Below, in pieces: positions 180-20,487 of a DNA stretch of 64,000 bases. The translations under genes were made by a program, and so were the position numbers. The notes beneath the pieces were generated by a model. That model had not been told where the DNA came from and did not search any database. It saw only the letters and a program-made list of their open reading frames with translations. Source of the stretch: a virus; IMG/VR virus record IMGVR_UViG_3300042887_000976, positions 1-64,000 of that record; one strand, written 5' to 3'. Position 1 is the first letter of the stretch. Every line of letters begins with the position of its first letter.

Positions 180-193
180 CCACCCAGCGGTCG

Positions 194-230
194 GAGCCCC
201 TGCCCTTCGGGGTGGGGGCTCTTTCCGTTT
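194..230 (+). terminator. Intrinsic terminator
   Basis: GAGCCCCTGCCC-TTCG-GGGTGGGGGCTC hairpin followed by TTTCCGTTT, 14 nt after the stop codon. Confidence 0.85.
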
Positions 231-247
231 CCAGAGTTTCTGTAATG

Positions 248-1250
248 TCCTGCGGGCTCAGATTGTTCGGGTCGCATAGCAGGGGATTGTTTGCGAACAC
301 ATAACGGAAACATAATTTTGACATAAGCCCCGTGGGGGCTCGCGAACACGGCTTGACAAAACCCTTGCGCAGTAAGGCTTTGCTGGGGGCTGATGCGGCG
401 CATTCATTCTGAAACCCTTGCCCCACAAGGCTCTGCGGGCGTTCGTTTCTACGGGCACTGGGAGGCTCTACGGGGGCACGCCCCCACTGTGGGCACTGTG
501 ACACCCGACCGACCGTTGTCGCCCCCATACGGGCTCCCAGTGGGCTCTGCGGGAGTCTCCATGTGGGTGCTGGGTTACGGGCTCGGTCAGGTGCTGGCTA
601 GACCAATAGTCTGTTAGGTGCGCCTAACAAAACAGGGGTTTGGAGACACCCCGAAACACCCCAAACCCTGTCAGACGCTACAGGAGCCGTTTTGGGGGCG
701 ATACCCCCCTGTAGGCACCCTTCATACCTTTTCGGGCTCAATCGCCCCCATACGGGCTCTGAATGGGCAATCCTGAAGGCTCCCGTGGCTCGGTGGCTGG
801 CTCGGTCTCGGTCAGGCTCGGTGTTAGGTGCGCCTAACGGGGCGAGTCGGGGCTCGGCTCGGTCTCGGTCTCATGGCAGGTCAGTGACGGTCTCGGTCAG
901 GGCGAGCCTGCGAGATTCTGTACGAACGCTCACGGGCAGGCGTGCGTGCGCAGGTGCGTGCGTGCGCAGGTGCGTGCGTGCGTGCGCACACGGGCGTGGG
1001 CGCAGGCGTGTGTGGGCGTGTGTGTATGCGTGTGTTTTTGTTTTGTGTTTCACGGATTCAAATGTGTTGGGCGAACTCGTAAACAATCAAACAAACTTTC
1101 ACGAACCCACAACGAACCCGACAACAATCAAACAATCCCTCACGGAATCACAACAACAGCGAACAACGAAACAATCCCTCACGGACAGCGTGAATGAAGC
1201 AACACCACCGAGCGCAGACATCACAGCACACGGGCTGACACGCCGTGGGG
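248..1250. other. Repeat-rich non-coding block (candidate genome end, packaging or origin region)
   Basis: No credible ORF; palindrome GTTAGG-TGCG-CCTAAC twice (613, 823); TCGCCCCCATACGGGCTC twice (519, 742); AAACAATCCCTCACGGA twice (1130, 1169); GTGC runs at 940-1035; bounded by convergent terminators. Confidence 0.6.
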
Positions 1251-1375
1251 ACATTACAGAAACTCTTGCAGGCATTGGGAAAGGCTCAAAAAAACGAGGT
1301 CGGTTTTTCAGTGACATCGGTTTTTTGGAGACATCAAAAAACACCATCGGTTTTGCTGGAGACATTACAGAAACT

Positions 1376-1406
1376 GAAAAGCCCCCGCCCCGAAGGGCGA
1401 GGGCTC
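1376..1406 (-). terminator. Intrinsic terminator
   Basis: Minus strand GAGCCCTCGCCC-TTCG-GGGCGGGGGCT-TTT, just after the DUF932 gene. Confidence 0.85.
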
Positions 1407-1428
1407 ACAGTGGAGGGTCGCTGTGCTG

Positions 1429-2454
1429 TTAGGCGTTGGCGAGGACGAGGTCAATCGCTTGCAAGACCTGAAGGTCAGCGTCATCGGTCTTGCCCATGAC
1501 TGCGTTGCTCAGGTTGCGCTGGGCACGATTCTTGTCGGTGCCACTGATGTGGTGGGCATAGGTGTTGAAAGCCTGAATGACTCCCAACTTGGTGCCCTTC
1601 CATGGAGCGACCATTGGGTTCTTGCTGTACAGGTCAAAGATTGCGTCCTGCTTGTTGCCCAACTTGGTGCGTGCGCTGTTGGTGGTTTCACCCATCTCAG
1701 CGATTGGCACAAGGCGGTTCACGATGTCAAAGAACTGCTTGTCGGTCACCGAGACAGAAGCCAAAGCCTCAATCTCAGCCATGATGTTGTCGGTCATGGT
1801 GTGAACCACGCCGATGGCATCACGCACTGACTGAACCTTGAAGCCTGAGTGCTTTGAGTGACGGGTGCGGTGAGCAGACTTGCCATCGTTGAGACCCATG
1901 GACAGCGTGTTGTCGCAGACGACCACGGTGTTGGTCATCTTGTGGGTCGTGGCAAGCGAGCCGTTGTGGCTGGTCGTTGCGAGCAACTGCGGGCGAACGG
2001 TGAAGCCCGATGGGGTTTCAATGTTCTCAGGCAACTCAATGCTGACCCATGCAACTGCGCCACCCTTGAGAAGCCCAGCCTGACCGATGGCAAGGTTGCT
2101 GTCGTCCACGATGTTGGCGACTGCGTCAATGAGCCATTCGCCATACTGGTGGATTTGGTAGCCATCCTTGAAGATGCCAAGCACGCTCTGGTCATCGGAG
2201 CGAACGATGAACTTGCGGTCATTTTGCAAGACATAGTTGAAGCCCTCAGCGGTCGGGATACCAACGAATGCTGGTGCCTCTACTGCCTGCCAGTTGAGCA
2301 AACGGCGATACACATCGGCAACGGGGATTGCGCCAATGTAGTGATTGCTTTCCGAGCCCTGCTCAGATGCTTTGTAGTGCCATGCGTTTCCACGGCGTTC
2401 AGTGAATCCAATCAGAGTGTTCTGATTGAGCCATTCCAGTGTTTCCTGTGACAT
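1429..2454 (-). CDS. DUF932-family phage/plasmid protein
   Basis: MSQETLEWLN start after AGGAGG RBS; GxLKGGAVAW, LLATTSHNGS, VVCDNTL and RHS motifs typical of DUF932; the track ORF is over-extended upstream. Confidence 0.85.
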   Translation of the reverse strand: MSQETLEWLNQNTLIGFTERRGNAWHYKASEQGSESNHYIGAIPVADVYRRLLNWQAVEAPAFVGIPTAEGFNYVLQNDRKFIVRSDDQSVLGIFKDGYQIHQYGEWLIDAVANIVDDSNLAIGQAGLLKGGAVAWVSIELPENIETPSGFTVRPQLLATTSHNGSLATTHKMTNTVVVCDNTLSMGLNDGKSAHRTRHSKHSGFKVQSVRDAIGVVHTMTDNIMAEIEALASVSVTDKQFFDIVNRLVPIAEMGETTNSARTKLGNKQDAIFDLYSKNPMVAPWKGTKLGVIQAFNTYAHHISGTDKNRAQRNLSNAVMGKTDDADLQVLQAIDLVLANA

Positions 2455-2499
2455 TTGATGTCCTCCTGTATCGGAAGGGGCGGTATTGCCCCACGACCG

Positions 2500-2529
2500 A
2501 TTGTAGGGGCGGTCATGTGAGTAAAGCAA
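2500..2529 (-). promoter_or_regulatory. SigA/sigma70-type promoter
   Basis: TTGCTT-18bp-TACAAT; 13-mer motif 15 bp upstream of the -35. Confidence 0.7.
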
Positions 2530-2570
2530 CAATCGCTCGGTGAAAGTTTCTGTAATGGTCTGAGAACGAC

Positions 2571-2600
2571 AAAAGCCCCCGCCCGTAAGGGCGAGGGCTC
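2571..2600 (-). terminator. Intrinsic terminator
   Basis: GAGCCCTCGCCC-TTAC-GGGCGGGGGC-TTTT; near-identical to the 1376-1406 terminator. Confidence 0.85.
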
Positions 2601-2623
2601 CTGCTGGGGGAGTTGTTGGGGGG

Positions 2624-3262
2624 CTAGAAGGGCTCGGTGAAGCCATCAATCTCGTCTGCTGGTTCGGGCAATTCGTCAGGCTCGCCGCCGAACAACTCGG
2701 TCTCGTCCGAGTAAGACACGAACTTGTAAGTGCCATCAGGAAGGGTGGCAGTGCCACCCTTCTCGCCCCAGTGAGCCAACTTTGCGCCGTACCTGAAGAA
2801 CCCGAATGTGGGGTCGTCAGACGACTTGGTGATGTTTGCCAAGAACGCAAGTGTGTCACCCTCGTTGAGAACCACACGCATCTTGGTGAAGTCAACCACG
2901 GGAATGGTGCCCCACAACTTGGTGCCATCTTCACGCTCAAGGATGACCTTGGCAATCGGGGTGTTGTTGTTGCGCCCATCGGTGTCAAACTTGAGAGACA
3001 CAATTTTGCCAATGACGCTCTTGTTGCGACCGCCTACGACAACTTGCTTGTTGGCAATCATTTCAGCCTTCTTCTCAGCCTTGACCTTGTCGGTCTCAAA
3101 GTTGCGCTCAACGCAAGCCATCTGACCTTCAGAGAGAACGAAGCGCATGGACTTGTTCAAGATGTCGGTGTAGAAAGAGTTGCCATTGGCATAGGTCATC
3201 AAGTGCATGATGACTTTTTGCTCACGCTCAGATGGCGCAGGTCGTGGTTTGTATGTTGTCAT
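2624..3262 (-). CDS. Hypothetical protein, possible OB-fold with acidic tail
   Basis: MTTYKPRP start after AGGAGG; beta-rich middle (GKIVSLK...KLWGTIP...GFF); acidic C-terminus ending EPF. Confidence 0.7.
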   Translation of the reverse strand: MTTYKPRPAPSEREQKVIMHLMTYANGNSFYTDILNKSMRFVLSEGQMACVERNFETDKVKAEKKAEMIANKQVVVGGRNKSVIGKIVSLKFDTDGRNNNTPIAKVILEREDGTKLWGTIPVVDFTKMRVVLNEGDTLAFLANITKSSDDPTFGFFRYGAKLAHWGEKGGTATLPDGTYKFVSYSDETELFGGEPDELPEPADEIDGFTEPF

Positions 3263-3306
3263 TTTTGATTCCTCCTGTGGAAACGGGACGGGATGCCCCA
3301 CCACCA

Positions 3307-3335
3307 AAGATAGAGCAATCGCCCACAAGACACAA
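3307..3335 (-). promoter_or_regulatory. SigA-type promoter
   Basis: TTGTGT-17bp-TATCTT; 13-mer 6 bp upstream of the -35. Confidence 0.7.
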
Positions 3336-3365
3336 CACCAAAGTTTGTGTAATGTCCTGACAACG

Positions 3366-3397
3366 AAAAAAGCCCCCGCACCGAAGTGCGAGGGCTC
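3366..3397 (-). terminator. Intrinsic terminator
   Basis: GAGCCCTCGCAC-TTCG-GTGCGGGGGC-TTTTTT. Confidence 0.85.
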
Positions 3398-3414
3398 GTT
3401 CCGTGGGGGGCTGA

Positions 3415-3768
3415 TTAGCAGAAGATTGCGTACAGTTGCTCGCACTGCTCAAGTGAATATGTGCCAGCCGAATACTTGCCAACGAGGTGGTTGACGAATG
3501 GCTTCAATGTGCCGAGCCACATCTGCATTGCAGGCTCGCCAAAGTTTGTGGTCACGAACTCTTGCGTCCACAGCACATCTGCGAACTCGTGGTGATTCTT
3601 CATGCGAACTTTGTGACCTGTGTCTGCGCTGTGACGATGACCCCAGTTCTTGGCACCACGCTCGTTGCCACGATGATAGAACTGCTCCCATTCGCACTCT
3701 GTGCAAACTGTGTATGGGTAAGCACCAAACACTGCTGTCCCTGTTGGGTTAGGTGAGATAGTTGACAT
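3415..3768 (-). CDS. Hypothetical protein with C2H2-like motif
   Basis: MSTISP start after AGGAGG; CTEC...RHSADTGH. Confidence 0.7.
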   Translation of the reverse strand: MSTISPNPTGTAVFGAYPYTVCTECEWEQFYHRGNERGAKNWGHRHSADTGHKVRMKNHHEFADVLWTQEFVTTNFGEPAMQMWLGTLKPFVNHLVGKYSAGTYSLEQCEQLYAIFC

Positions 3769-3809
3769 TTGATTCCTCCTGTGGAATTGGACGGGATTGC
3801 CCACTGCCA

Positions 3810-3838
3810 AAGATAGGGCAATCTCTTGCGAAGAGCAA
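3810..3838 (-). promoter_or_regulatory. SigA-type promoter
   Basis: TTGCTC-17bp-TATCTT; 13-mer 6 bp upstream of the -35. Confidence 0.7.
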
Positions 3839-3864
3839 CATGAAAGTTTCTGTAATGTGATTCA

Positions 3865-4239
3865 TCAGACAATCCGTTCTCGCAACTCGTCATAACTGAT
3901 GTTGACCCACCCTGTCAGGGAGTCATTTGGAACTCGTGGTGAGTTATCTTCCGTGGTAGAAAATGAATGCGCACAGCAGGGCTTGTCTTCCCAACAGGGG
4001 TGGCACCCTGCGCCAAACTTGAGTCGCAAGATTGGAAACAATTCCACAAGGCGAATTACACAGTCATGGCAAATGTCAAGTCGGCTAAGGAAATGTAAAG
4101 GTTTCTGAAAGTTGTCGGTGAAGCCTGCGTATGAACCAGTGATGTCAAATGACAACCCACGGTCAGGTGGTTCTTCAGGCAACCACCGTGTGACTGGCGC
4201 ACCACACCCGTCACAGGTGTTGGGAAGAGTTTCTGTCAT
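3865..4239 (-). CDS. Cys-rich hypothetical protein
   Basis: CDGC, GSYAGFTD, ICHDC; AAGGA RBS. Confidence 0.7.
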   Translation of the reverse strand: MTETLPNTCDGCGAPVTRWLPEEPPDRGLSFDITGSYAGFTDNFQKPLHFLSRLDICHDCVIRLVELFPILRLKFGAGCHPCWEDKPCCAHSFSTTEDNSPRVPNDSLTGWVNISYDELRERIV

Positions 4240-4295
4240 GTCCTTGTCTTTCGTTTAGTTGGGAGTGAGTCCGTGAGAGTTTGTGTAATGTTCCA

Positions 4296-4625
4296 TTACA
4301 GGTCGTCCTCATCACGATGCTCAAAACTCCAGCAGACCTCACCAGTGACAACACCAGCAATGAAGGCATCAGCCTGCAAACGGTCGTAGCACGATGGTGA
4401 GTCAAGAACGAGTACAAACTCATAGCCCAAGAGGCATCCGTGTACGAATGCGTTGCGCAGGTCAAGGTTTACACAATCGTTGGTGTCAGGGTATGTCATT
4501 TGTGCAATCTCGCCCCACTTCTCAAGATGTGCTTTTGTATAAGTTCTTGGTTGCTTGTGGTAACGCAAAGCGTTGCGTGTGTCACGCACTGCTTGCGAGT
4601 AATCCGTTATTACTGTCATGTCCAT
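4296..4625 (-). CDS. Hypothetical protein
   Basis: ORF with AGGAGG RBS downstream of a promoter. Confidence 0.7.
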   Translation of the reverse strand: MDMTVITDYSQAVRDTRNALRYHKQPRTYTKAHLEKWGEIAQMTYPDTNDCVNLDLRNAFVHGCLLGYEFVLVLDSPSCYDRLQADAFIAGVVTGEVCWSFEHRDEDDL

Positions 4626-4648
4626 CCTCCTGTGGTTGGGTTGACTTC

Positions 4649-4677
4649 ATCGTAGGGAATAAAACGGTCGGTTGCAA
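4649..4677 (-). promoter_or_regulatory. SigA-type promoter
   Basis: TTGCAA-17bp-TACGAT; 13-mer 5 bp upstream of the -35. Confidence 0.75.
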
Positions 4678-4770
4678 CAGAGAGTTTCTGTAATGTTGGT
4701 TTTTTAGTGACATCGGTTTTTCAGTGACATCGGTTCGTCAGATTCTGTATTAGTTTCTGTAATGGGGTGC

Positions 4771-4802
4771 AAGAAAAAGGGACGGTTTGCACCGTCCCTT
4801 CT
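4771..4802 (-). terminator. Intrinsic terminator
   Basis: AAGGGACGGT-loop-ACCGTCCCTT hairpin with T-run on the minus strand. Confidence 0.8.
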
Positions 4803-4828
4803 CCCTCACTGGGGGCGTGAGATGTTAC

Positions 4829-5146
4829 TTAGTTCTCTTCTTCGTCTTCTGCTTCGTTCCAGCAATCTTCGCACATTGCATCTGCATAGATGTCAGAGTC
4901 CATTCCACAGATACCACAGTATGTTACTGTTTCTTCGCTCATACCAATGTCACAGGTGACCCACGCCATCGTGGTGCGGAGCAAGTGACCGTAGTCGGCT
5001 GATGTGGCTTCCTCGTGGTACGCAGTTACTTCATCGCTGGGCACGCCTGCTTTGCGCAATGCCTTCATCGTGCGAGCAAGGATTGAGAACGCATTACCGT
5101 CCTCACCTACTAGTTGCACTTGTGCTTCGGGGTATTTGGTTGTCAT
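4829..5146 (-). CDS. Conserved small phage protein
   Basis: VQLVGEDGNAFSILART.KALRKAG pattern common in phage hypotheticals; CxxC pairs; AGGAGG RBS. Confidence 0.75.
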   Translation of the reverse strand: MTTKYPEAQVQLVGEDGNAFSILARTMKALRKAGVPSDEVTAYHEEATSADYGHLLRTTMAWVTCDIGMSEETVTYCGICGMDSDIYADAMCEDCWNEAEDEEEN

Positions 5147-5391
5147 GATTCCTCCTGTGGAACTTGGTTGTTGATAAATGTATCGGTCTTGGTCAGGACT
5201 TGCAACTTAGGAGTTTGTGTAATGTCTGCCAAGTTGGATTGTGCGTCTTGCTCAAGTTTTTTGATGAGTGTTTCCATGCGTGCATACAATTCTTCAAACG
5301 CTTCATCACTAAGTTCGTTGTAGAAAGAAAGAATGCCATCAAAGGTTTTACGCAGTTCCTTTACCGTCTTGAGTAACTCTTGTGGTGCCAT
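5143..5391 (-). CDS. Hypothetical coiled-coil protein
   Basis: Overlap-coupled ORF, MAPQELL start. Confidence 0.65.
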   Translation of the reverse strand: MAPQELLKTVKELRKTFDGILSFYNELSDEAFEELYARMETLIKKLEQDAQSNLADITQTPKLQVLTKTDTFINNQVPQEES

Positions 5392-5816
5392 CACTCGTCC
5401 TCGTCCTCGTCTTCTTCGGCGCACCAGTCGCATGAAGTTTCTGTCATGTCAGAGCCACAGTCAGGGCACTCCTCAACGGGGTCACCATTCTTGGTCAACC
5501 TTGCACCGTCAAGCATTATACGAAACTCCATTGCTGTGCCATTCTCGTAACGCACATACACAGGGAACACACCGTCCCCACCAGCAGTGGATGTTGCTAC
5601 GCCGAGACTCTTTCCTAACTGACCTGCTGTGTGACGAATTGTTGTAACGCACGCACCGTCATACGAGAAATCATTCTTGTCTTCATCAGTGCTGGATGTG
5701 AACTCATTGCTATCCCAATGTGACTTGATGTAACACGGGTCGCAGACCATGAGTTGACCTGAGTCAACTGCACATTCTCCTACGAGTGTCCATCCATTTT
5801 TTGTACTGTTTTCCAT
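5391..5816 (-). CDS. DUF4241-like protein
   Basis: G.CAVDSGQLMVCDPCY and TAGGDGVFPVY motifs. Confidence 0.65.
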   Translation of the reverse strand: MENSTKNGWTLVGECAVDSGQLMVCDPCYIKSHWDSNEFTSSTDEDKNDFSYDGACVTTIRHTAGQLGKSLGVATSTAGGDGVFPVYVRYENGTAMEFRIMLDGARLTKNGDPVEECPDCGSDMTETSCDWCAEEDEDEDE

Positions 5817-5848
5817 TTTCTCTACTTCCTGTAATGTTGAGATGTTGT

Positions 5849-6190
5849 TTATTTGTTGAGAATGTTATTCACGACTAAACCGATTGGTGAAGCGTTGAAC
5901 TTTTCTGCAAGGGTCTTGAGTTCTGTGGACTCGTCAGATTCTGTATCAGTTTCTGTAATGTCATCGTCTTCGGTAATGGCATTGAAGTTGTCAACTAAGT
6001 TGGCAACTTGCTCTTCAAGCAATGCAATAATTTCTTGTGGTGTCATTGGAAGAAAGATGTTTATTGCGTTGTAATCATTCAAAACAACCTTAAAAGTTGT
6101 CGTGCCAAACTGAGGCATATGGTGTAAGTCAAATGACATTTCTTTTGAGTGTGGATGGATATTTGTTGATGTGCTCATGTCTCGTGACAT
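5849..6190 (-). CDS. Hypothetical protein
   Basis: ORF with GAGGAGG RBS below a promoter. Confidence 0.65.
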   Translation of the reverse strand: MSRDMSTSTNIHPHSKEMSFDLHHMPQFGTTTFKVVLNDYNAINIFLPMTPQEIIALLEEQVANLVDNFNAITEDDDITETDTESDESTELKTLAEKFNASPIGLVVNNILNK

Positions 6191-6224
6191 TGTCCCTCCT
6201 CGGAACTAGTTGTTGGTAGTTGTA

Positions 6225-6253
6225 AATATAACGGTCGGTTTATGGAAACACAA
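6225..6253 (-). promoter_or_regulatory. SigA-type promoter
   Basis: TTGTGT-17bp-TATATT; 13-mer 5 bp upstream of the -35. Confidence 0.75.
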
Positions 6254-6271
6254 CACAAAGTTTGTGTAATG

Positions 6272-6514
6272 TCAGATGTAGGTGATTGTCTGAATTGATG
6301 TGATTGGTGCCATGACTTGGTATGAAGGTTCGTCAACTGAAGAGCCAACAGTGAACCACAGAACTCCATCGCTGTAATCGGTGACTTCTACATAACCCCA
6401 TGAATGACCATCACGGAGTTGTATGCGAACAAACAAATCCTTGAGTGCGTGAAGAACTGTACAGTCTTCAATTTCTTTATTGGATTCTTCAAGATAGATG
6501 ATTGGGTAAGACAT
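6272..6514 (-). CDS. Hypothetical protein
   Basis: ORF track; GAGGA RBS. Confidence 0.65.
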   Translation of the reverse strand: MSYPIIYLEESNKEIEDCTVLHALKDLFVRIQLRDGHSWGYVEVTDYSDGVLWFTVGSSVDEPSYQVMAPITSIQTITYI

Positions 6515-6517
6515 TGT

Positions 6518-6826
6518 TTATTCCTCAGTTTCTGTAATGGTGTTCATGAGGGCAAGGTACCAGTCATGAGTTGCGGCAGTACCTGCCAACGATGCGATTC
6601 GGGCATCATAATCGCTGGCATCACACCCGTCATAGACAATAGTTGTGTAGTGACCTTGAAGAATGACTGCTTGTGCCCAATGGGTTTCGCTATCATGAAT
6701 CCTGTTGTCAACTTTGTCAATGTGCAAGATTGCTTCAGAGACAATGTCATTTGCTTCACTTTCTGATTCGGCAAAAACAAAATAAGTTCCTGTCATGGTT
6801 ACGGTGTATGGCTTTTTGTTAGACAT
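6518..6826 (-). CDS. Hypothetical protein
   Basis: Y.V...GT..V.AESE.EA N-terminus; coupled. Confidence 0.65.
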   Translation of the reverse strand: MSNKKPYTVTMTGTYFVFAESESEANDIVSEAILHIDKVDNRIHDSETHWAQAVILQGHYTTIVYDGCDASDYDARIASLAGTAATHDWYLALMNTITETEE

Positions 6827-6829
6827 TAT

Positions 6830-7132
6830 TTATTCCTCGGTTTCTTCGTGGTCTTCGCTGATGCCATGCTTCTCAGAGTCATAGCATTCTTCGTGGTAGT
6901 TTCCGTAATGGTAGTTACCTTCTTCATCTGTGAACTCCACACGAATCTCACAGTCAAGATAAATCTGTTGGTTGCACTCGTCACATTCAAATCCTGAACA
7001 CTCGGCACAGCCCCAACCATCGTCAACTGGGATACGGTTAACGAATAAACCAAATCCCGCACCAAACGCTGTTGAGCGTTTGCAATATACACATGGGTCA
7101 ACTGTCCCCAGTGCTTGTTCTGCTACATTCAT
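6830..7132 (-). CDS. Cys-rich hypothetical protein
   Basis: CVYC, FVNRIP, CAEC, CDEC; GAGGAGG RBS. Confidence 0.7.
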   Translation of the reverse strand: MNVAEQALGTVDPCVYCKRSTAFGAGFGLFVNRIPVDDGWGCAECSGFECDECNQQIYLDCEIRVEFTDEEGNYHYGNYHEECYDSEKHGISEDHEETEE

Positions 7133-7239
7133 AATTCCCTCCTCAGAAAATTAGTTTGTTTTATGTGAAAGGTTCCCTGTCATTCTCGTGTAAGAAATTA
7201 ATCTCGTGTAAGAAATCGGGGAACCCCCACACACTTATT

Positions 7240-7268
7240 ACCTTACAGGAGAGGTAATAAGAAAACAA
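7240..7268 (-). promoter_or_regulatory. SigA-type promoter
   Basis: TTGTTT-17bp-TAAGGT; 13-mer 5 bp upstream of the -35; overlaps inverted repeat CTTATTACC...GGTAATAAG. Confidence 0.6.
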
Positions 7269-7286
7269 CACAAAGTTTGTGTAATG

Positions 7287-7472
7287 TCACCACTCATTTG
7301 TGCGAACTGAAGAAGCAATCATTGCTCCAACTCCTGCAAAAATGATTCCCCATACTCCGTAAGCAATAGAACCATTTTCCATACCAAATGAAAGAAAGAT
7401 TCCGACAAGAAGTAAACTGACGCTCAAGCGTTTCTTGAAGCGTGTCCATTTATGCCAATCTGCTACTTTCAT
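7287..7472 (-). CDS. Small membrane protein
   Basis: Two hydrophobic segments. Confidence 0.65.
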   Translation of the reverse strand: MKVADWHKWTRFKKRLSVSLLLVGIFLSFGMENGSIAYGVWGIIFAGVGAMIASSVRTNEW

Positions 7473-7948
7473 GACTCATCACTTTCTGTATTGTTGTATT
7501 CGGCGTACATCCAATCCAATGCTGTGACAACGGCTGTGCGCCAATGAATCCATAGTTCATCATCTTGTAAAATGTAACTGGACAGCAAATCAAATTGGTT
7601 TTTGTTTAGATGTGCGCCCCACTCAAGAATCTTTTTAATCTCTTGGGCACCTTCAATGTGGTCAACATCACCAATCATTGCAGGAATCTCTTCAAACTCT
7701 TGTTGCAGTGTGATTGGTGTCAACGCAAGACAGTTTCCGTAATGTAAATCACCGTAACCACATCCTTCTAAGATGTCAGACAATTTTGTACCGTGACGAT
7801 TGGACACAGAGAGTGCGTCAGATTCTGTACCAAAGTTCAACAGTGTTTGGTCTGCTTCGCTCAACTCGTTCTCATCAAAGATTGCACAACGATTGACATC
7901 AAGAATGATGCCATCATCGGTACCTACAATAATCATTTTCTTTTTCAT
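7469..7948 (-). CDS. Hypothetical protein
   Basis: 159 aa coupled ORF. Confidence 0.7.
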   Translation of the reverse strand: MKKKMIIVGTDDGIILDVNRCAIFDENELSEADQTLLNFGTESDALSVSNRHGTKLSDILEGCGYGDLHYGNCLALTPITLQQEFEEIPAMIGDVDHIEGAQEIKKILEWGAHLNKNQFDLLSSYILQDDELWIHWRTAVVTALDWMYAEYNNTESDES

Positions 7949-8076
7949 TTCTTTCCTTTTGTTGCGTTACGAGCAGACTCGCAAAGTTCTTTGATATCTT
8001 TTTCTTCTTCGTGAAGACCAATGAGTGTCAGGATGCCCCACAAAGCACCAATGCCAATGATTACATAAGTCAACAT
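7945..8076 (-). CDS. Small membrane protein (43 aa, not in track)
   Basis: Manual translation MLTYVIIGIGALWGILTLIGLHEEEK...; overlaps both neighbours. Confidence 0.55.
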   Translation of the reverse strand: MLTYVIIGIGALWGILTLIGLHEEEKDIKELCESARNATKGKK

Positions 8077-8429
8077 CAGAATGGTGCCTTAATAATTGTA
8101 ATTTCGTATCCTTCGGATTCAAGAGCCGTTTCTAAAATCTCCCAGCCGTATTGCGTGGAGACTTCTCGTAGGGGCTTTGAAACTTTCTGTAATGCCTCAA
8201 GAGCCTCTTCGTATGTCAAATGCATTGACAATGTTTGTACATCTTCTGCATCCCAAGAGATGTGAACTTGGTCGGGGTTACGGTACTCAAGAACTGGTAT
8301 ACCTACTGATTCGGCATAATCCATAAAGGCTTCCTCTTCGTCAAAGTCAGTATTGGAATCGTCAACGATTACACAGTTCTCTGCGTCTACTAATGTGCCT
8401 GATTGGATGTCTAAAATCCACTTACTCAT
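8076..8429 (-). CDS. Hypothetical protein
   Basis: MSKWILD start after AGGAGG; ISWDAEDV...LTYEEA pattern. Confidence 0.7.
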   Translation of the reverse strand: MSKWILDIQSGTLVDAENCVIVDDSNTDFDEEEAFMDYAESVGIPVLEYRNPDQVHISWDAEDVQTLSMHLTYEEALEALQKVSKPLREVSTQYGWEILETALESEGYEITIIKAPF

Positions 8430-8727
8430 CTTTGTCCTCCTGTTGGTCAAGATATTGAGATACTACAGTTGTGAGATGTTCAATCACAACCTGTGAAGCC
8501 GACATAAGAATGTCATGCAAATCAATGGTGTCACGAATTGTTTCAAGTTCAGTTTCTGTAATGGGGTGCCCTGCAACTTCATGGAATACTGCGCTGATGT
8601 CTAAATCACCAAACACCAATCCTTGCCAGTTGAACTGCTCACAGAGTTTGTCAAAAACATTGAAGCCAACAAACTCGTCATCGTCAAGGTTTGTAATAAA
8701 TCGTGCAATCTGCTGTGATGTTGTCAT
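8422..8727 (-). CDS. Hypothetical protein
   Basis: Coupled ORF. Confidence 0.65.
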   Translation of the reverse strand: MTTSQQIARFITNLDDDEFVGFNVFDKLCEQFNWQGLVFGDLDISAVFHEVAGHPITETELETIRDTIDLHDILMSASQVVIEHLTTVVSQYLDQQEDKDE

Positions 8728-9032
8728 TACTTGCTCAAATCAATCTTTACATAAGTTTCTGTAATGATATTTTCACCATCGTAAAGGTAAGCAGTTACAT
8801 ACATGGTTGGCTTTTGGTCACTTGGGTAATCCATTTGATTACCGTCTGTATAGTAATTGAGGTCGGTGACTACATCAAATGAATCCCACTGGTCAACTTC
8901 AGGGAACCAACTTTTGTTTTCTTTGTCCCACACTTCGGGGTCTTTGCGCATCTTCCACACAGCCTTTAAACATTTACTGCGAATCTCTGTGTAATTTTGT
9001 GCAATGTGTTCGTAGAACTCTTGTGCTTGCAT
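8727..9032 (-). CDS. Hypothetical protein
   Basis: Coupled ORF. Confidence 0.65.
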   Translation of the reverse strand: MQAQEFYEHIAQNYTEIRSKCLKAVWKMRKDPEVWDKENKSWFPEVDQWDSFDVVTDLNYYTDGNQMDYPSDQKPTMYVTAYLYDGENIITETYVKIDLSK

Positions 9033-9034
9033 GA

Positions 9035-9322
9035 CTAATTACCTGCCTTGAAATTGGTTGCCCATTCTGTTCCATTGATTTCTGTCAGAAGGCGCATAAA
9101 GTTATACAGATGCACACCTCGTGCGTCTTCAATCATCTCTACGACATCTTCTCGTGGTGCGTACTCGTACTGTTCCCAAATCAAGGGTGCGTTAGAGCCA
9201 GCCTCTACGAGTGCGAGGATGTCACTGAGGATAAAACCATTATCCATCAGTTCTTCTACATTGCAAAGATGGTGTTCTAAAGAACAGAACAGTGCGTAAT
9301 CCTGTAATTGCTGATAATTCAT
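9035..9322 (-). CDS. Hypothetical protein
   Basis: AGGAGG RBS. Confidence 0.65.
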   Translation of the reverse strand: MNYQQLQDYALFCSLEHHLCNVEELMDNGFILSDILALVEAGSNAPLIWEQYEYAPREDVVEMIEDARGVHLYNFMRLLTEINGTEWATNFKAGN

Positions 9323-9350
9323 TGTTTGTTGCCTCCTGTTGGCGTTGTTG

Positions 9351-9761
9351 TCAGACTACCCACACATATGGCAAATCACTCACCACATTGGGATAAAAGT
9401 TTCTGTAATGTTCGGGGAACTTTGCAACGAGGTTAGAACGATGTGATTCAATGATGTCAGTGCGTCCCCACCAGTCGGGAAGGTCATTCGCATCGGGTCG
9501 TATTAACTCTTGCATTTTATAAGCACAAGTATCTTTGTAACCTTTGGCAGTCCATGCGTCACACATTGCGAGACCATAAGCGCAGAGACCTGCTTCGTGA
9601 CCTGCCCACATCTTTGATGCTGGATGGTTGACCCATCCTTTGGTGAGCCCAAGGTTGGCACGCAAGATTTGTAATACTTCTACACGCTGTTTACCAAGAC
9701 GCTTGTAGTCAAGAACTAAAGCAATGTCTGCAAAAGTGCGTTCGGGTACAAAAGTTTGCAT
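9351..9761 (-). CDS. Pyrimidine-dimer DNA glycosylase / endonuclease V-like (MSMEG_6728 family)
   Basis: MQTF.P...LD.KRLGKQRVE.LQI, W.NHPA..MW.G, P.W.G....H.SH.SNL..K.PEHY, LPYVW. Confidence 0.85.
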   Translation of the reverse strand: MQTFVPERTFADIALVLDYKRLGKQRVEVLQILRANLGLTKGWVNHPASKMWAGHEAGLCAYGLAMCDAWTAKGYKDTCAYKMQELIRPDANDLPDWWGRTDIIESHRSNLVAKFPEHYRNFYPNVVSDLPYVWVV

Positions 9762-10111
9762 CAGTCCACCATCTCATCTTTGGTGACTGCCATGTGGACG
9801 ATGTTGTCCTCATACGCAAGTTCGTAAATAAACTCGTATGGTTCTGAGAGGTCAATAAACCACTCTTCACCAATGTCAAAAGCATTGACATAGTTTTTTT
9901 CTATCGCTTTATGTAATGACTCTTGTTGAGCATCATCTAAATAAAAGAAGATGTTGTCATCACGGACTCCGTAGATGTCCTCTTCGGCTGGTTGTCCTTC
10001 GTGGTTCAACAACTCTTCACTAAATGAGAAGTAAAAGTAATCTTGGCTATCAGGGCTGTCCTTCCAACAGACAGTCCCTTCAAATCCAATCGGTTTGTGT
10101 GTCAACATCAA
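9761..10111 (-). CDS. Hypothetical acidic protein
   Basis: Coupled ORF. Confidence 0.65.
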   Translation of the reverse strand: MMLTHKPIGFEGTVCWKDSPDSQDYFYFSFSEELLNHEGQPAEEDIYGVRDDNIFFYLDDAQQESLHKAIEKNYVNAFDIGEEWFIDLSEPYEFIYELAYEDNIVHMAVTKDEMVD

Positions 10112-10125
10112 AATGGTTCCTTTTC

Positions 10126-10752
10126 TTAATTAGAGTTTGTGTAATGTTTGTTTGCCATAAACAACACATACTCGGCATGAATCGTATCGCTGTTTTTTAC
10201 TTTCCACTCTTCGTACTTGTCCATAGATTCACAATCGTCCCAATCAATCGGATGTGGGTAATTGCAAGGCTCGTACATGGATTCAAAGATGATGTTGCCG
10301 TTATGAAATACATGAAGACCTGAGAAGAATCCAGCCTCTTCGTCATAGTCAAAAGTAAAATACAAAGATGGAAACATTTGAGAGACTTTGAGAAAGCCTG
10401 TGTCAGCACAAGACCAAGCAGTTTGGTATTGAATGATGACTTCCCACACACCAAAAGAGTCTTCAGAAACTGGTTGGATGTCTGTATCACAGTCACCCCA
10501 TTTGCTACCCCAGTTATCATAAGCCCAGTCGTACCAATCTTTGTGACCATACTTGGCAATGTTGGACTCTTTTTGCTTACGGTGTTCTTCTGCCTTGTCT
10601 TCGGGGACAGAGCCTGCAACAGTGTTTTGAAGTTCTTCAGGACATGGCACATAAGATTGAAGAATCTTTGAGTCAGTTATCCCATCAATGAAACGATGTA
10701 CTTCTTCTTTGGAGCCTTTGACGCTCAGTGTGGTTGATACCCAGTTTGGCAT
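10126..10752 (-). CDS. DUF1281/YubB ferredoxin-like domain protein
   Basis: MPNW, DWYDW...NWG.KW, TAWS, Y.EE.G.F.G motifs. Confidence 0.8.
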   Translation of the reverse strand: MPNWVSTTLSVKGSKEEVHRFIDGITDSKILQSYVPCPEELQNTVAGSVPEDKAEEHRKQKESNIAKYGHKDWYDWAYDNWGSKWGDCDTDIQPVSEDSFGVWEVIIQYQTAWSCADTGFLKVSQMFPSLYFTFDYDEEAGFFSGLHVFHNGNIIFESMYEPCNYPHPIDWDDCESMDKYEEWKVKNSDTIHAEYVLFMANKHYTNSN

Positions 10753-10754
10753 TT

Positions 10755-10928
10755 TTATCCCTCTTCTTCTTCGTCAGATTCTGTAATGTCTTCTACATCA
10801 ATGGAGTAGACCTCGCTGTATTGGATGTATTCTTCCCAATTCCAACCTTGGTTGGTTGCGTCTTCCTCGTTGTCGCATTCCACTTCGTATTCCAAGTCAA
10901 CACGAACATATACTTTGTAAGTTGCCAT
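10755..10928 (-). CDS. Small acidic phage protein
   Basis: MATYKVYVRV..EYEVE.D.EEDA; GAGGAGG RBS. Confidence 0.65.
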   Translation of the reverse strand: MATYKVYVRVDLEYEVECDNEEDATNQGWNWEEYIQYSEVYSIDVEDITESDEEEEG

Positions 10929-10930
10929 GA

Positions 10931-11113
10931 TTAGTCCTCCTCGTACAAGGTAATTTCCCATGGGCTGTCCCAGCCCACAGAACCATCTGAATCTTCTGTG
11001 ATGAGTTGGTCATCATCATAAGAGTAATAAACTGCCTCGGCTTCTTCGGCTGAGTTTGCTTCAACCACATACATATGGTTAACAGTTTCAGTTACATAAA
11101 TTGCATATTTCAT
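10931..11113 (-). CDS. Small acidic phage protein (DpnD/PcfM-like)
   Basis: MKYAIYVTETV....VVEANSAEEA; AAAGGA RBS. Confidence 0.6.
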   Translation of the reverse strand: MKYAIYVTETVNHMYVVEANSAEEAEAVYYSYDDDQLITEDSDGSVGWDSPWEITLYEED

Positions 11114-11139
11114 GTTGGGTTCCTTTCTTCCCTGCCGAT

Positions 11140-11168
11140 AGAGTACAACCACCACAAACAAAAAGCAA
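11140..11168 (-). promoter_or_regulatory. SigA-type promoter, divergent from the whiB-like gene
   Basis: TTGCTT-17bp-TACTCT; no 13-mer adjacent. Confidence 0.6.
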
Positions 11169-11186
11169 CAATTATTTTGGAGGAAT

Positions 11187-11495
11187 ATGACCGTAGAGCA
11201 AATTGAATACAATATGTTGAAATCACCTGACAATGGTGCATGGCGTGACCATGCATTGTGTGCTGGTATGGGCAACACTCACTTTTTTGAGTTTGGTGCT
11301 GGGCGCACTGTCAAAACAGTGGCGTTAAGTATTGCCAAGGCAGTTGACACTTGTGCTGAATGCCCCGTGACAGTTGAGTGTTTGCGCTTTGCAGTAGACA
11401 ATGACATCAAGCATGGTATTTGGGGTGGGTTGATGCCTAAAGAGCGTAAGGGTCTTCTAAAGAGTTTCTGTAATGTTTCAGAGCAAAGCGTTTAG
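11187..11495 (+). CDS. whiB: WhiB-family transcriptional regulator
   Basis: W...ALC...FF...C..CPV..EC...A......GIWGGL...ER; GGAGG RBS. Confidence 0.92.
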   Translation: MTVEQIEYNMLKSPDNGAWRDHALCAGMGNTHFFEFGAGRTVKTVALSIAKAVDTCAECPVTVECLRFAVDNDIKHGIWGGLMPKERKGLLKSFCNVSEQSV

Positions 11496-12563
11496 GTAAG
11501 AGTTAAAGGTATCAGCACCTACGAGGATGTCTCTTGACCAAGAGGCTTCTCGTAGTGCTTGCCCTTCTTCTGCACGAACCTTTGGGTCACATAATGCTGT
11601 GATGTGCTTCTGCCATTCTTTTGCTTTGTTCTTTTTGGCAACTCTGCCAACTCCCCAAAGTTTCTGTAATGTCTCATAAGCAGGTAACCCCGATGCAACC
11701 CACGGAATACCTGAAGCAGAGTATTCAAGAATCTTGATGTCAGACTTAGCATGATTGAATGGGGTGTCCCGTAGAGGTGCAATACCAATATCCATTGTGA
11801 GTAAGTTTGGATAATCTTCAGGGTCAGTTGCTGGGAGCGAAGTTACAGAAGTTTCTGTAATGTTCCATTTGGATGCAAGCGAAGGTGCATTGGGGTGCGC
11901 ACCACTATGCTGGAGAGAGATTAAACCAAGTTTCTGTAATGGTGGGATAGTGCCAGCAACAGTTTCAAGGTCACCACTTCTGTGGTTGGTTGAGCCCACC
12001 CATCCAACAATTGGTTTAGTTTCTGTAATGTGTTCGTGGATATTGAATCGCTTTACATCAACAGTATTCAGTAACACATCTATGGGTGGACAATTACTAA
12101 ACATTTTTAGTAGTCGGTCTCTTAGGTACGGTGTGGATACGGTTATTCTGTCGCTTGTAGCAAGTACCTTTTTGTAATGATTGGTGTTTTCGTTTGGGCT
12201 GGTTTTTGGGTGACTTGCAGCAAAAGCAAGGTTGGTTGTGTCCAGTCCCCAGTACCAGTCATCAAGGTCATTGATAATAATCTGACCCGCTTTCTGTGCC
12301 AACTTCATGTGTTCAGGAAGGGTGTCATGCATTAGTCGTTGCATGATAATGATGTCAACATCATGGAGCGTAGAATCTCCATCGGTTTGTATAGAGAAGT
12401 GCGTTCTGTTCCATACAAGAGTCCCAATAAAAGTATCGGTTTCTAGCAAGGGTTCGTACTGTCCTAGTCGTACCCAACCTGCACCACCCCAATGGCTTTT
12501 GTTATCAGGTGACCTCTGTGGTGGGACTCTGTCCCCGCTGGCTATTCCCAGTTTCAACTTCAA
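11478..12563 (-). CDS. Glycosyltransferase (GT-B, GT4-like)
   Basis: IIMQR, DLDD, ITVSTP.L, VGWVGS..H..DL, DIGIAPL....FN..KS.IK.LEY.A.G.P.VAS. Confidence 0.85.
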   Translation of the reverse strand: MKLKLGIASGDRVPPQRSPDNKSHWGGAGWVRLGQYEPLLETDTFIGTLVWNRTHFSIQTDGDSTLHDVDIIIMQRLMHDTLPEHMKLAQKAGQIIINDLDDWYWGLDTTNLAFAASHPKTSPNENTNHYKKVLATSDRITVSTPYLRDRLLKMFSNCPPIDVLLNTVDVKRFNIHEHITETKPIVGWVGSTNHRSGDLETVAGTIPPLQKLGLISLQHSGAHPNAPSLASKWNITETSVTSLPATDPEDYPNLLTMDIGIAPLRDTPFNHAKSDIKILEYSASGIPWVASGLPAYETLQKLWGVGRVAKKNKAKEWQKHITALCDPKVRAEEGQALREASWSRDILVGADTFNSYLNALL

Positions 12564-12721
12564 TTAATTTCCTCGTTTTATTAGCGTGCTTTGAGCAAGG
12601 GTGTGTAGGATTTTCTGTAACGGGTACGAATACTGTCAGTGTGACATTACATGAGTCGCATTTATATGTCTTCCTATACATAAGTACTAGTCTAGATTAT
12701 TTAGTCGGTTTCTGTCAACAG

Positions 12722-13279: not shown

Positions 13280-13301
13280 TTTTCTCCAATGTCCATACAA
13301 T

Positions 13302-13365
13302 AAAAAAGACCCCGTACCAATTGAGTACTGGAGGTACTCGGAGGTGAATCCTTGGTATGGGGTCT
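13302..13365 (-). terminator. Branched hairpin with U-tract between the whiB-like and rpf-like genes
   Basis: AGACCCCATACCAA...TTGGTACGGGGTCT-TTTTT enclosing GAGTAC-5nt-GTACTC. Confidence 0.65.
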
Positions 13366-13382
13366 GTCTACAGGTTACAGGG

Positions 13383-15837: not shown

Positions 15838-16036
15838 TTAATATTCCTCTTCAGGGTCTTGTGATTCTATGTATTCAGCAAAGATGTCCCAAAGGTCATC
15901 ATTTGTAGGGTTTAGAGACATGTATCTAAGGGTACTGAGAATCTTCCAAAGAAGATAAGTGTTAAATACTAATAAACCAATTATTATCATTTTATGCTCC
16001 AAACTCAGTTGATTTTAGGTGGTACTTATGGTTATG

Positions 16037-18952: not shown

Positions 18953-18955
18953 AAT

Positions 18956-20485: not shown

Positions 20486-20487
20486 TA

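Follow-up and report, generated by a model that had tools for sequence, protein, structure and literature searches.

A 13-nucleotide word, CATTACASAAACT, forms an array in the first 12 kb of the genome of a lake-water actinobacterial phage, and we consider it slightly better than an even chance that this is a stoperator-like operator array through which a phage factor controls transcription. The phage is contractile-tailed and apparently lytic, and is represented by a 77.7-kb contig (G000, ~82% complete); the window is its first 64,000 nucleotides. The word occurs exactly 23 times in 235-12030, whereas 0.03 copies are expected from dinucleotide shuffles. 21 of these copies lie on the - strand and two (1252 and 1363) on the + strand. 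In addition, 6-7 copies with one mismatch and 5 with two mismatches were found in 1-12100. An earlier reading of the sequence alone (the sequence-only reading) had reported about 23 exact copies and about 7 near-matches in 1-12,030, all but those two in one orientation, which agrees with these counts.

Two further exact copies lie past the window, at contig positions 68546 and 70865, and the whole contig holds ~25 one-mismatch copies, nearly all on the coding (-) strand. Instead of the five scattered one-mismatch copies noticed before outside the sector, the stretch of 12.1-77.7 kb holds 22, all but two on the - strand. Examples within 12100..64000 are:

13623, 18708, 21119, 25647, 26860, 29063, 34021, 36389: - strand, one-mismatch 13-mers
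37072, 38506, 40207, 41939, 45162, 49384, 53397: - strand, one-mismatch 13-mers
16838, 24602: + strand, one-mismatch 13-mers

The limit of the sector, first taken as an absolute boundary, is a density step, with 2.4 copies per kb in the 12-kb sector and 0.34 per kb in the rest. The 13-mer is a genome-wide motif with a steep, seven-fold step in density, rather than a sector-restricted one.

The 13-mer is a discrete asymmetric unit of 13-16 bp with the effective form aA-CATTACASAAACT-nT. Conservation in its flanks ends at -2/-1 and +2, so the sites are not copies of a longer repeat. Such a unit would need a sequence-specific reader. The sector contains small, acidic, lineage-specific genes of early type. 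Its features are listed below, together with their state in G001, a relative with 80-95% identity:

180..1410: non-coding, GC-rich 1-kb block that separates two convergent transcription units, with iteron-like repeats inside; bounded by inverted terminators (193-222, 1379-1406) and reversed 13-mers
235..247, - strand: exact 13-mer at the left edge of the block; part of an 18-nt perfect inverted repeat with its partner at 1249-1266; 13/13 kept in G001
1252..1264, + strand: exact 13-mer, reversed, at the right edge of the block; 13/13 kept in G001 against 65/80 in the flanks
1363..1375, + strand: exact 13-mer, reversed; comes right after the - strand terminator 1379-1406
2545..2557, - strand: exact 13-mer between terminator hairpin 2575-2592 and the promoter of a DUF932 gene
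3342..3354, - strand: exact 13-mer, C variant; after terminator 3370-3397, with its end 6 nt upstream of a TTGnnn-17-TAnnnT promoter (~3307-3335)
3845..3857, - strand: exact 13-mer; end 6 nt upstream of a promoter-like element (~3810-3838)
4278..4290, - strand: exact 13-mer, C variant, with a stop codon 5 nt before it; a one-mismatch 13-mer (4228-4240) lies across the next start codon
4683..4695, - strand: exact 13-mer; end 5 nt upstream of a promoter (~4649-4677); at a G000/G001 homology breakpoint
4752..4764, - strand: exact 13-mer right after a hairpin that resembles a terminator; a second, half-site-like TACAGAATCT comes next
5212..5224, - strand: exact 13-mer, C variant, in the 3' part of ORF 5143-5391; end 6 nt upstream of a promoter (~5177-5205)
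5948..5960, - strand: exact 13-mer in the 3' part of ORF 5849-6190
6259..6271, - strand: exact 13-mer, C variant; begins right after a stop codon; end 5 nt upstream of a promoter (~6225-6253)
6527..6539, - strand: exact 13-mer, located 9 nt ahead of the ORF 6518-6826 stop, with the next start codon 12 nt downstream; at a homology breakpoint
7274..7286, - strand: exact 13-mer, C variant; begins right after a stop codon; end 5 nt upstream of a promoter (~7240-7268)
8551..8563, - strand: exact 13-mer within ORF 8422-8727; kept in G001
8754..8766, - strand: exact 13-mer; next start codon 26 nt downstream
9398..9410, - strand: exact 13-mer at the 3' end of a pyrimidine-dimer glycosylase gene
10134..10146, - strand: exact 13-mer, C variant; a stop codon 8 nt and the next start codon 25 nt downstream; at a homology breakpoint
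11187..11495, + strand: WhiB-family gene (PF02467, 1.1e-17), the sole + strand gene of the sector
11463..11475, - strand: exact 13-mer, 2 nt past the glycosyltransferase stop and within the 3' end of whiB (+)
11659, 11850, 11929, 12018, - strand: four exact 13-mers, spanning 11659..12030, in the glycosyltransferase gene 11478-12449
13383..13793, - strand: second WhiB-like gene, beyond the sector (136 aa, Cys-rich extension at the C-terminus); holds the one-mismatch 13-mer 13623

The placement of these sites points to transcription. The sector has ~1 site per gene, at the gene junctions. The pattern TTGnnn-N17-TAnnnT, which is found only about once per kb, begins 5-6 nt past six of the 13-mers and 15 nt past a seventh, and the promoter-linked sites lie at about -41 to -53. 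Composites of terminator, site and promoter are found at 2545, 3342 and 4752/4683. Reversed copies lie directly beyond each of the two convergent terminators. At the sector entrance five sites are clustered, four in the glycosyltransferase gene, as the earlier reading had it, and one just past it. Most in-gene 13-mers (11/12, p=0.006) are located in the 3' part of the genes, which could just mean that protein tails better tolerate a fixed 13-mer. A further 11 are intergenic, after stops or terminators and before starts. Nearly all copies stand in mRNA sense orientation at gene junctions, several of them 7-26 nt before a start codon, and the word might be read in the sense transcripts for processing, stability or translational control at cistron junctions. 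We hold such an RNA-level signal to be very unlikely, since the transcripts that the promoter-linked copies would serve begin downstream of them, the distance to the start codon varies from 7 to 140 nt, the reversed copies in the untranscribed block are conserved, and the equivalent words of related phages are promoter DNA elements (see below).

Sequence comparisons indicate that selection on the 13-mer acts at the DNA level, as had been proposed. In codon-order shuffles of the sector genes, 0 exact and 0.02 one-mismatch copies are expected, against 11 and 5 observed. The enrichment persists outside the sector, where the - strand genes hold 15 one-mismatch copies against 0.23 expected from codon shuffles, so codon usage is no explanation for the sites. 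Identity to G001 is 95.8% in the sites and 86.2% in their flanks. In the glycosyltransferase gene, none of the 17 degenerate third positions inside 13-mers is changed, compared to 59 of 286 outside. The ITET/LQKL residues encoded there at the 13-mers occur only in G000 and G001, and these positions are variable in other lineages. The copies within ORFs do occur in all three frames, with the I-T-E-T frame favoured.

Related phages were examined for an equivalent motif, and different lineage-specific 12-mers were found in the homologous sector of G003, G004 and G005. Here, the 12-mers are the -35-region element of leaderless promoters, one per gene (15-35 promoters), with the form motif-N15-17-TAAGGT/TAAGAT-N6-ATG. 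The site in G000 is located ~11-12 bp upstream of the position of the relatives' motif, that is one helical turn away on the same helical face. Whole-genome scans of five array-less relatives revealed no array.

It is conceivable, but rather doubtful, that the 13-mer is an activator or promoter-specificity element, which recruits RNA polymerase via a phage factor like T4 MotA boxes or class I activators. Phage WhiB proteins, which bind sigma region 4, would possibly take part, and the in-gene copies would be weak internal promoters, boosters or decoys. In every sector promoter of the relatives the motif stands in place of the -35 or overlaps it, and the -10 (TAAGGT/TAAGAT) does not vary between lineages, a factor-dependent architecture comparable to T4 middle promoters (PMC2988021, PMC6755090), and the shared helical face of the G000 site agrees with this. 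However, canonical TTGnnn -35 hexamers are already present in the G000 sector promoters, no -10-like element stands at a fixed distance from ~20 of the exact copies, and there is no gene in front of the reversed copies at the non-coding block.

The relatives also bear on the polarity of the array. Almost all genes of the contig are on the - strand and, with exact and one-mismatch copies counted together, 46 of 51 run in the same direction as the genes. "One orientation" is thus the same as "co-directional with transcription", and polarity set by the genome is inseparable from polarity set by the genes in this window alone. The claim that polarity follows the genome and not the local gene goes beyond this window, and the copy at 11463 in the + strand whiB gene leaves the matter undecided, because it also follows the stop of the - strand glycosyltransferase gene. 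The 12-mers of G003-G005 flip with the direction of the promoter and its gene. In G001, two 13-mers are antisense within three opposite-strand genes, which fits genome-set polarity as well as polarity for the control of read-through. The word might instead be a polar DNA signal to which some machinery besides RNA polymerase responds. It could give Chi-like protection from end-entering nucleases, guide a translocase or packaging, form a fork barrier, or mark a nicking site on one strand. Such a signal would account for these two G001 copies, which keep the genome orientation, and for the location of almost all copies on one strand genome-wide; the array also adjoins the block with iteron-like repeats, a possible origin or packaging site. 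The signals of this type that are known measure 5-8 bp and have no link to promoters or gene junctions, the copies nearest to the block on either side point away from it, an arrangement compatible with neither direction of entry, and the fixed -35 spacing and the promoter role in the relatives would be left unexplained. We judge this the least probable of the alternatives.

Several sites coincide with breakpoints between close relatives. Endpoints of G000/G001 homology in the sector lie ≤5 nt from a site in 6 of 25 cases, with 1.3 expected (P ~0.002), and low-depth variant contigs from lake metagenomes have junctions that coincide with or adjoin sites, at 4762, 6254/9394 and 12031. The words could be cassette boundaries, swap points for small genes by microhomology or a dedicated recombinase, as in the PeSL cassettes of T4-type phages or integron attC sites. 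Direct orientation would avoid inversions, and one site per gene, the terminator-site-promoter composites and the hyperplastic sector, in which most genes have no homologue in other lineages, are in line with exchange. Conserved functional sites at junctions would mark breakpoints anyway. Moreover, a shared stretch of 13-16 bp offers little length for homologous exchange, none of the scanned proteins was seen to be a site-specific recombinase, crossovers would be harmful at the four glycosyltransferase copies and at weak copies in essential structural or replication genes, and the fixed distance to the -35 is left unexplained. A recombination function therefore seems unlikely.

The stoperator analogy of the sequence-only reading is apt. 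Cluster A mycobacteriophages carry operator/stoperator arrays, bound by L5 gp71 or the TipsytheTRex repressor (PMC9283540, PMC6550527). Common to these arrays and the present one is an asymmetric 13-bp site that recurs more than 20 times over the genome, whose orientation tracks transcription, which is placed at promoters and gene junctions, and whose lineage-specific sequence turns over between relatives. In contrast to cluster A, the sites of this contractile-tailed, apparently lytic phage are seven-fold concentrated in one sector, many lie within coding sequence, and those linked to promoters are upstream of the -35 and not over the promoter. A repressor homologous to L5 gp71 was looked for in this phage and not found. 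T4 middle promoters combine a MotA box with AsiA in sigma appropriation (PMC2988021, PMC6755090). The relatives similarly pair a host-type -10 with a phage-specific box for the -35 at dozens of promoters, but the word in G000 is not at -30 to -35, most copies are without promoter, and no MotA C-domain or AsiA homologue was identified in this phage. PeSLs are defined as composite terminator/promoter sequences (PMC2839356, PMC4122927). Like these, the sites are regulatory elements that recur between the small genes of a hyperplastic region, and insertions, deletions or replacements between close relatives have their boundaries there; unlike in PeSLs, just a word of 13-16 bp is shared, often standing alone and also within genes. 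The genome of the actinophage phiC31 likewise has highly conserved repressor operators in many intergenic regions. These are inverted repeats bound by the dimeric repressor of a temperate phage, whereas the 13-mer is asymmetric. We read the array as a variant of the operator-array kind with unrelated parts and not as a categorically new system. Calling it an undescribed system was too strong, as the placement at junctions, the fixed -35 distance and the promoter arrays of the relatives lead to ordinary transcription control by a phage factor.

In a stoperator-like array, the 13-mer would be the recognition site of an asymmetrically binding, sequence-specific protein, probably phage-encoded, which acts on transcription of the 12-kb early-type gene block. 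The exact sites by promoters, at operon-internal gene junctions and in the five-site cluster at the sector entrance would have high affinity and face the direction of transcription, the reversed copies would guard both flanks of the non-coding block behind the two convergent terminators, and the one-mismatch copies would be weaker sites dispersed over the remaining genome. As the factor builds up, initiation at the sector promoters would be damped, and bound factor would halt elongating polymerase in a direction-dependent manner, so that the sector is switched off or insulated. We infer repression as the effect of the sites with a mild preference over activation. A simple repressor would be unusual at -41 to -53, a position that an activator could well take, and as stoperators the four sites midway through a conserved enzyme gene would block that gene too.

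A candidate reader of the 13-mer was found outside the sector:

25566..25829, - strand: gene for a basic protein of 87 aa, predicted to adopt a winged-helix fold; itself holds the one-mismatch 13-mer at 25647

The model of this protein (pLDDT 80.5) matches MarR/ArsR-type DNA-binding domains and the T4 MotA N-domain with Z ~11. The MotA activation domain (1bja) is its best Foldseek match, which would favour activation, but is tied with generic winged-helix regulators. MerR-like and WhiB proteins had been suggested as binders; the MerR-like protein and WhiB1 are both kept in the array-less relative G006, and the 87-aa protein fits better. In a profile search the 87-aa protein was found in array-bearing lineages and in no array-less relative; in the array-less G007, however, the syntenic position is occupied by a divergent winged-helix protein. 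This co-occurrence extends over three or so independent lineages, probably of one clade, and may reflect a single event; another binder may be encoded in the missing part of the contig, which is ~82% complete. The 87-aa protein evolves fast, with 86% identity in G001 and 30-40% in G003-G005, where neighbouring proteins have 66-80%. Its putative recognition helix is not the same in the different motif classes, and the two lineages with C-rich motifs have it in common.

The contig of 77,672 bp, of which the window is the first 64 kb, is linear and about 82% complete according to its IMG/VR record and has a GC content of about 44%. In our gene calls nearly every gene lies on the minus strand. PHROG and Pfam matches indicate a contractile-tailed phage with sheath, baseplate and tape measure genes and a full replication set, including DNA polymerase, helicases and RecA, as well as two WhiB-family genes, a DpdA-like tRNA-guanine transglycosylase and sugar-modifying enzymes. 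Streptomyces phages are the nearest cultured ones (terminase identity 46%), and GenBank phages gave no megablast match to the sector, i.e. the first 12 kb or so with its small early-type genes. The stretch is present as contigs in 20 lake-water DNA metagenome runs and in none of the RNA runs. We read its source as an uncultured freshwater actinophage, which is apparently lytic.

The dense array of the 13-mer CATTACASAAACT is real. As reported by the sequence-only reading, 23 exact copies occur in the window, all within 235-12030, where 0.03 were expected; 21 of them are on the minus strand and 2 on the plus strand. With up to two mismatches, 66 matches were found compared to 5.4 expected. Over the whole 77.7-kb contig, 25 copies are exact and about 26 have one mismatch. 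Of these two kinds together, 29 are located in 1-12.1 kb (2.4 per kb) and 22 in the other 65.6 kb (0.34 per kb), where all but two are on the minus strand. The density thus has a seven-fold step, located at the glycosyltransferase gene. The weak copies outside the sector, thought to be few, had thus been undercounted, and two exact copies lie past the window at contig positions 68546 and 70865. The motif is therefore genome-wide and not restricted to the sector.

46 of the 51 copies run with the genes. Since almost all genes are on one strand, the polarity of the genome is the same as that of transcription in this phage. Beyond the left end of this contig, the close relative G001 continues with three genes of opposite strand; two copies within them, one of which is exact, keep the main orientation of the genome. 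These antisense copies fit a barrier to read-through from the main direction and fit a polarity set by the genome equally well. A polar signal unrelated to transcription is the reading to which we give the smallest probability. An RNA signal, with which the co-directional copies would agree, appears hardly more probable. Neither Rfam nor tRNA searches, run on 1-14 kb and on the window, gave a match.

For the copies in genes, codon order was shuffled within each gene, which keeps codon and amino-acid usage. The sector genes contain 11 exact and 5 one-mismatch copies (0 and 0.02 after shuffling), the other genes 15 one-mismatch copies (0.23 after shuffling). Copies occur in all three frames, as described before, and also in non-coding DNA. 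On the basis of the frames, the non-coding copies and the shuffled null, we rejected the idea that a repeated peptide (ITET in acidic tails) is the cause. In comparison with G001, a 39.9-kb relative of 80-95% nucleotide identity, exact sites are conserved to 95.8% and their 40-nt flanks to 86.2%; several sites have decayed or newly arisen, so the array turns over. The glycosyltransferase protein is 98% identical between the two, and of its degenerate third positions 0 of 17 changed inside the four sites compared to 59 of 286 outside. The unchanged third positions and the shuffled counts, far below those observed, bear out the earlier claim that selection acts on the nucleotide sequence. The residues at these four sites, ITET (twice) and LQKL (twice), are found only in these two phages, and other lineages carry unrelated residues at the same variable positions: the protein was altered so as to carry the word. 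Beyond the word, information content equals background except at -2/-1 (A) and +2 (T), i.e. outside -2 to +14, and there is no internal symmetry. As the flanks lack conservation, the unit is a discrete asymmetric site of 13-16 bp and not a piece of a longer repeat.

In the sector, about 29 sites were counted for about 28 genes. 11 sites are intergenic, typically directly past a stop codon or terminator hairpin and ahead of the next start, and 16 lie within ORFs, mostly in the 3' part; outside the glycosyltransferase, 11 of 12 in-gene sites fall in the 3' half (p=0.006). Five exact copies lie within 570 bp at the upstream entrance of the sector, four of them in the glycosyltransferase, as first counted, and one 2 nt past its stop. 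Seven sites are linked to predicted promoters of a loose pattern that occurs about once per kb:

3342, 3845, 4683, 5212, 6259 and 7274: site, 5-6 nt gap, then TTGnnn-N17-TAnnnT
2545: site, 15 nt gap, then TTGnnn-N17-TAnnnT

With the 5-6 nt gap, the word spans about -41 to -53, upstream of the -35 region and without overlap. The leaders of these predicted promoters carry AGGAGG ribosome-binding sites. We also rejected that the 13-mer serves as a -35 element in a separate class of promoters, because a -10-like signal is absent at any fixed distance. At the far end of the sector, two terminators close convergent units:

193-222, plus strand: terminator of one convergent unit, near-identical to 1379-1406
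1379-1406, minus strand: terminator of the other convergent unit, near-identical to 193-222

Directly past each of them lies a 13-mer copy which is reversed relative to the arriving polymerase. An 18-nt perfect inverted repeat has its two arms at 233-250 and 1249-1266, each around a 13-mer copy. The 1-kb block between the terminators is non-coding and GC-rich; its repeats comprise iteron-like direct ones and a 17-nt word that bears a palindrome and is present twice. Between 250 and 1250 its GC content is 58%, and tandem units of 41 nt are found there besides GCGTGCGTGCG-type repeats and both copies of the 17-nt word, TGTTAGGTGCGCCTAAC. A form skipping 368-490 is also present in 3 of 4 metagenome runs. 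The block is a possible origin or packaging region.

With modest confidence we favor an operator and roadblock array, through which a phage-encoded asymmetric DNA-binding protein would control transcription of the early-type sector. The main rival is activation by the same proposed binder; the position of the word upstream of the -35 hexamers would suit it, but we consider it unlikely. The logic of an operator and roadblock array seems closest to that of the stoperators of cluster A mycobacteriophages (PMC9283540), although no member of their repressor family was found and the layout is sector-biased and partly intragenic. An asymmetric site of 13-14 bp with more than 20 copies genome-wide is common to both. 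Stoperator orientation tracks transcription, as does that of the co-directional majority here, in a nearly one-strand genome. Stoperators include an early-promoter operator and sites in short intergenic spaces; here, sites lie beside promoters without overlapping them, and 11 are intergenic. A bound stoperator blocks elongation in one orientation only, which is a feature of that system. Its gp71 is a two-domain monomeric repressor, of which no homologue was found here: tblastn of gp71 from mycobacteriophage L5, a sequence search against G001 and this contig (about 82% complete), gave a best E of 2.9.

A glycosyltransferase search revealed 142 related viral loci, of which only two 98%-identical ones (G001 and G002) share the word. 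In an IMG/VR scan with the 14-mer ACATTACAGAAACT, single, chance-level occurrences were found among the matches listed. Other relatives carry words of their own. G004 has AGGA(T/A)TCGTGAC in the homologous sector (about 34 copies in 11 kb), G005 and G003 have CCCCCT(C/T)GGCT or CCCCCTACCCCA, and another group has GGATTTGGACAA. The layout in these word-bearing relatives is word, N15-17, TAAGGT/TAAGAT, N6, ATG, and the word plainly looks like a promoter element. One promoter is predicted per small gene, with leaderless transcripts, and the strand of the word flips with the gene. Arrays of 15-35 such near-identical promoters are located as follows:

G004 (locus L045): about 45.1-56.0 kb
G005: 80.8-89.6 kb
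G003: 63.0-72.3 kb

Many of the genes behind these promoters begin with M-T-T-T or M-S-N-D. The -10 element is common across lineages and the word in the -35 region is private, which suggests a lineage-specific reader. In T4 MotA middle promoters, a host -10 is combined with a phage-factor box near -30 that replaces the -35 element. This architecture is present in G003-G005 but absent here: the promoters have a TTGnnn hexamer, and the word is found farther upstream, at about -41 to -53. The whole genomes of five complete relatives in which the reader candidate was undetected (G006-G009 and G013) have no such arrays. Downstream of the glycosyltransferase in L058, L042 (G006) and G007, GACCTGAGGAGGTC is repeated at gene starts on the opposite strand. 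It is a 5-bp inverted repeat with a central Shine-Dalgarno GAGG, so an RNA hairpin could display or hide the ribosome-binding site.

The candidate reader is a basic 87-aa protein encoded outside the sector (25566-25829, minus strand). Its AlphaFold model is a winged helix (pLDDT 80.5) with the T4 MotA activation domain (1bja) as best Foldseek match. In VIA-align, 1bja (Z 11.2) ties with MarR/ArsR/PadR DNA-binding domains (Z 10-11.7). MotA has an N-terminal activation domain and a C-terminal double-wing DNA-binding domain; a second domain is absent from the 87-aa protein. The protein is 86% identical to that of G001 and 30-40% to those of G003-G005 (neighbour proteins 66-80%). The stretch aligned to the recognition helix varies by motif class and is common to G003 and G005, both with C-rich words. 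When a profile of the five sequences was run against eleven array-less relatives, no match was found up to an E of 1. Only 186 nt occupy the syntenic place in G008 and G009, and unrelated ORFs lie there in G006 and G013; array-less G007, however, has a divergent coiled-coil plus winged-helix protein in this place, which weakens the co-occurrence of reader and array. A locus search with the winged-helix alignment returned 13 loci; apart from one fragment that lacks the sector, all belong to the lineages already named. The array-bearing lineages are probably one clade, so the 87-aa protein is a lead and not proof. A predicted complex with WhiB1 scored 0.02, which counts for neither side.

Pfam scans of 27 small proteins of the sector and nearby gave no DNA-binding family. 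Other candidate binders were rejected. WhiB1 and the helix-turn-helix protein at about 38232-38712 are also present in array-less G006, and the MerR-like protein (32264-32698) maintains ordinary identity in that relative. A 509-aa protein found only in this phage and G001 (18956-20485, minus strand) is implausible as a sequence-specific binder because it is proline-rich and of low complexity. It is also glycine-rich, with a lysine/alanine-rich tail and no family match. The longer frame at about 38232-38712 (minus strand) encodes a classical helix-turn-helix protein that likely organises replication; its neighbours are the helicase-loader and DnaB genes. A one-mismatch copy at 38506 lies in the codons for its putative recognition helix.

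Endpoints of homology to G001 in the sector fall within 5 nt of a site in 6 of 25 cases, compared to 1.3 expected (P about 0.002). Four lake metagenomes contain contigs identical over the sector plus low-depth variants, which suggests co-existing relatives differing in cassette content. The variant junctions or ends are each at or beside a 13-mer:

4762/6000
6254/9394
11612-12031: 420-bp shared piece ending at 12031

These endpoints and junctions indicate that the sites mark cassette boundaries, similar to the promoter/stem-loop cassettes (PeSLs) of T4-type phages (PMC2839356, PMC4122927). PeSLs are composites of early promoter and stem-loop in a hyperplastic region and coincide with indel or replacement boundaries of close relatives. 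Such boundaries were seen here too, and terminator, 13-mer and promoter follow each other at 2545, 3342 and 4752/4683. Unlike PeSLs, most other copies lack terminator, promoter or both, and only -2 to +14 is common to the copies instead of a whole composite sufficient for homologous exchange. That the sites exist for recombination would account for these junctions but seems improbable. We regard boundary marking as a consequence of conserved junction sites and not as their purpose, because the shared length is only 13-16 bp, copies lie within essential genes and the fixed distance to -35 would go unexplained.

A broader possibility, which we hold as doubtful, is that this lake actinophage group uses a private 'promoter and roadblock code' that doubles as cassette junctions. 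The word, a lineage-specific 12-13-mer, would be read by a small winged-helix protein that evolves fast and possibly acts on sigma-A region 4 together with the WhiB proteins of the phage. Such a system would be the actinobacterial equivalent of sigma appropriation in T4. Every early-sector promoter would be defined by the word in most lineages; in the present lineage the word would have left the promoter and entered coding sequence as a one-way barrier array, and the same words would be the junctions for cassette exchange. If true, a co-evolving pair of factor and site governs both expression and modular evolution of the host-takeover region.

To our knowledge, asymmetric, direction-dependent arrays of regulator sites are so far described mainly in temperate cluster A-type actinophages with gp71-like repressors. 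The same logic in an unrelated, apparently lytic lake phage would suggest that sector-wide control arose more than once. An enzyme gene carrying four sites at amino-acid cost and the different private words of relatives as putative promoter elements stand out. The 87-aa protein and the 13-bp word may offer a compact pair for studying polar roadblocks or factor-dependent promoters in Actinobacteria, and a handle on early-gene cassette shuffling in abundant freshwater phages with hard-to-grow hosts. Phage-host pairs of Nanopelagicales have become available (PMC10202952).

Nearly all proteins encoded in 2600-11100 are short, carry a strongly acidic net charge of -5 to -22 and lack homologues beyond the lineage of this phage and G001, which is typical of host-takeover or anti-defence genes. 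The DUF932 gene (1429-2454, minus strand) ends the sector on the main strand, whereas in relatives its position is beside whiB and the glycosyltransferase. In this lineage the small-gene sector therefore apparently came to lie between whiB and DUF932 by insertion or rearrangement. The product of the second WhiB-like gene (13383-13793, minus strand) has 136 aa and a Cys-rich C-terminal extension that is conserved; the gene is far better conserved across lineages than the WhiB gene at 11187-11495. A gene run which could hypermodify DNA comprises the following members:

11478-17431: DpdA-like tRNA-guanine transglycosylase, GDP-mannose-dehydratase/epimerase-like enzyme, HAD/5'-nucleotidase-like protein, DUF6378 and the glycosyltransferase
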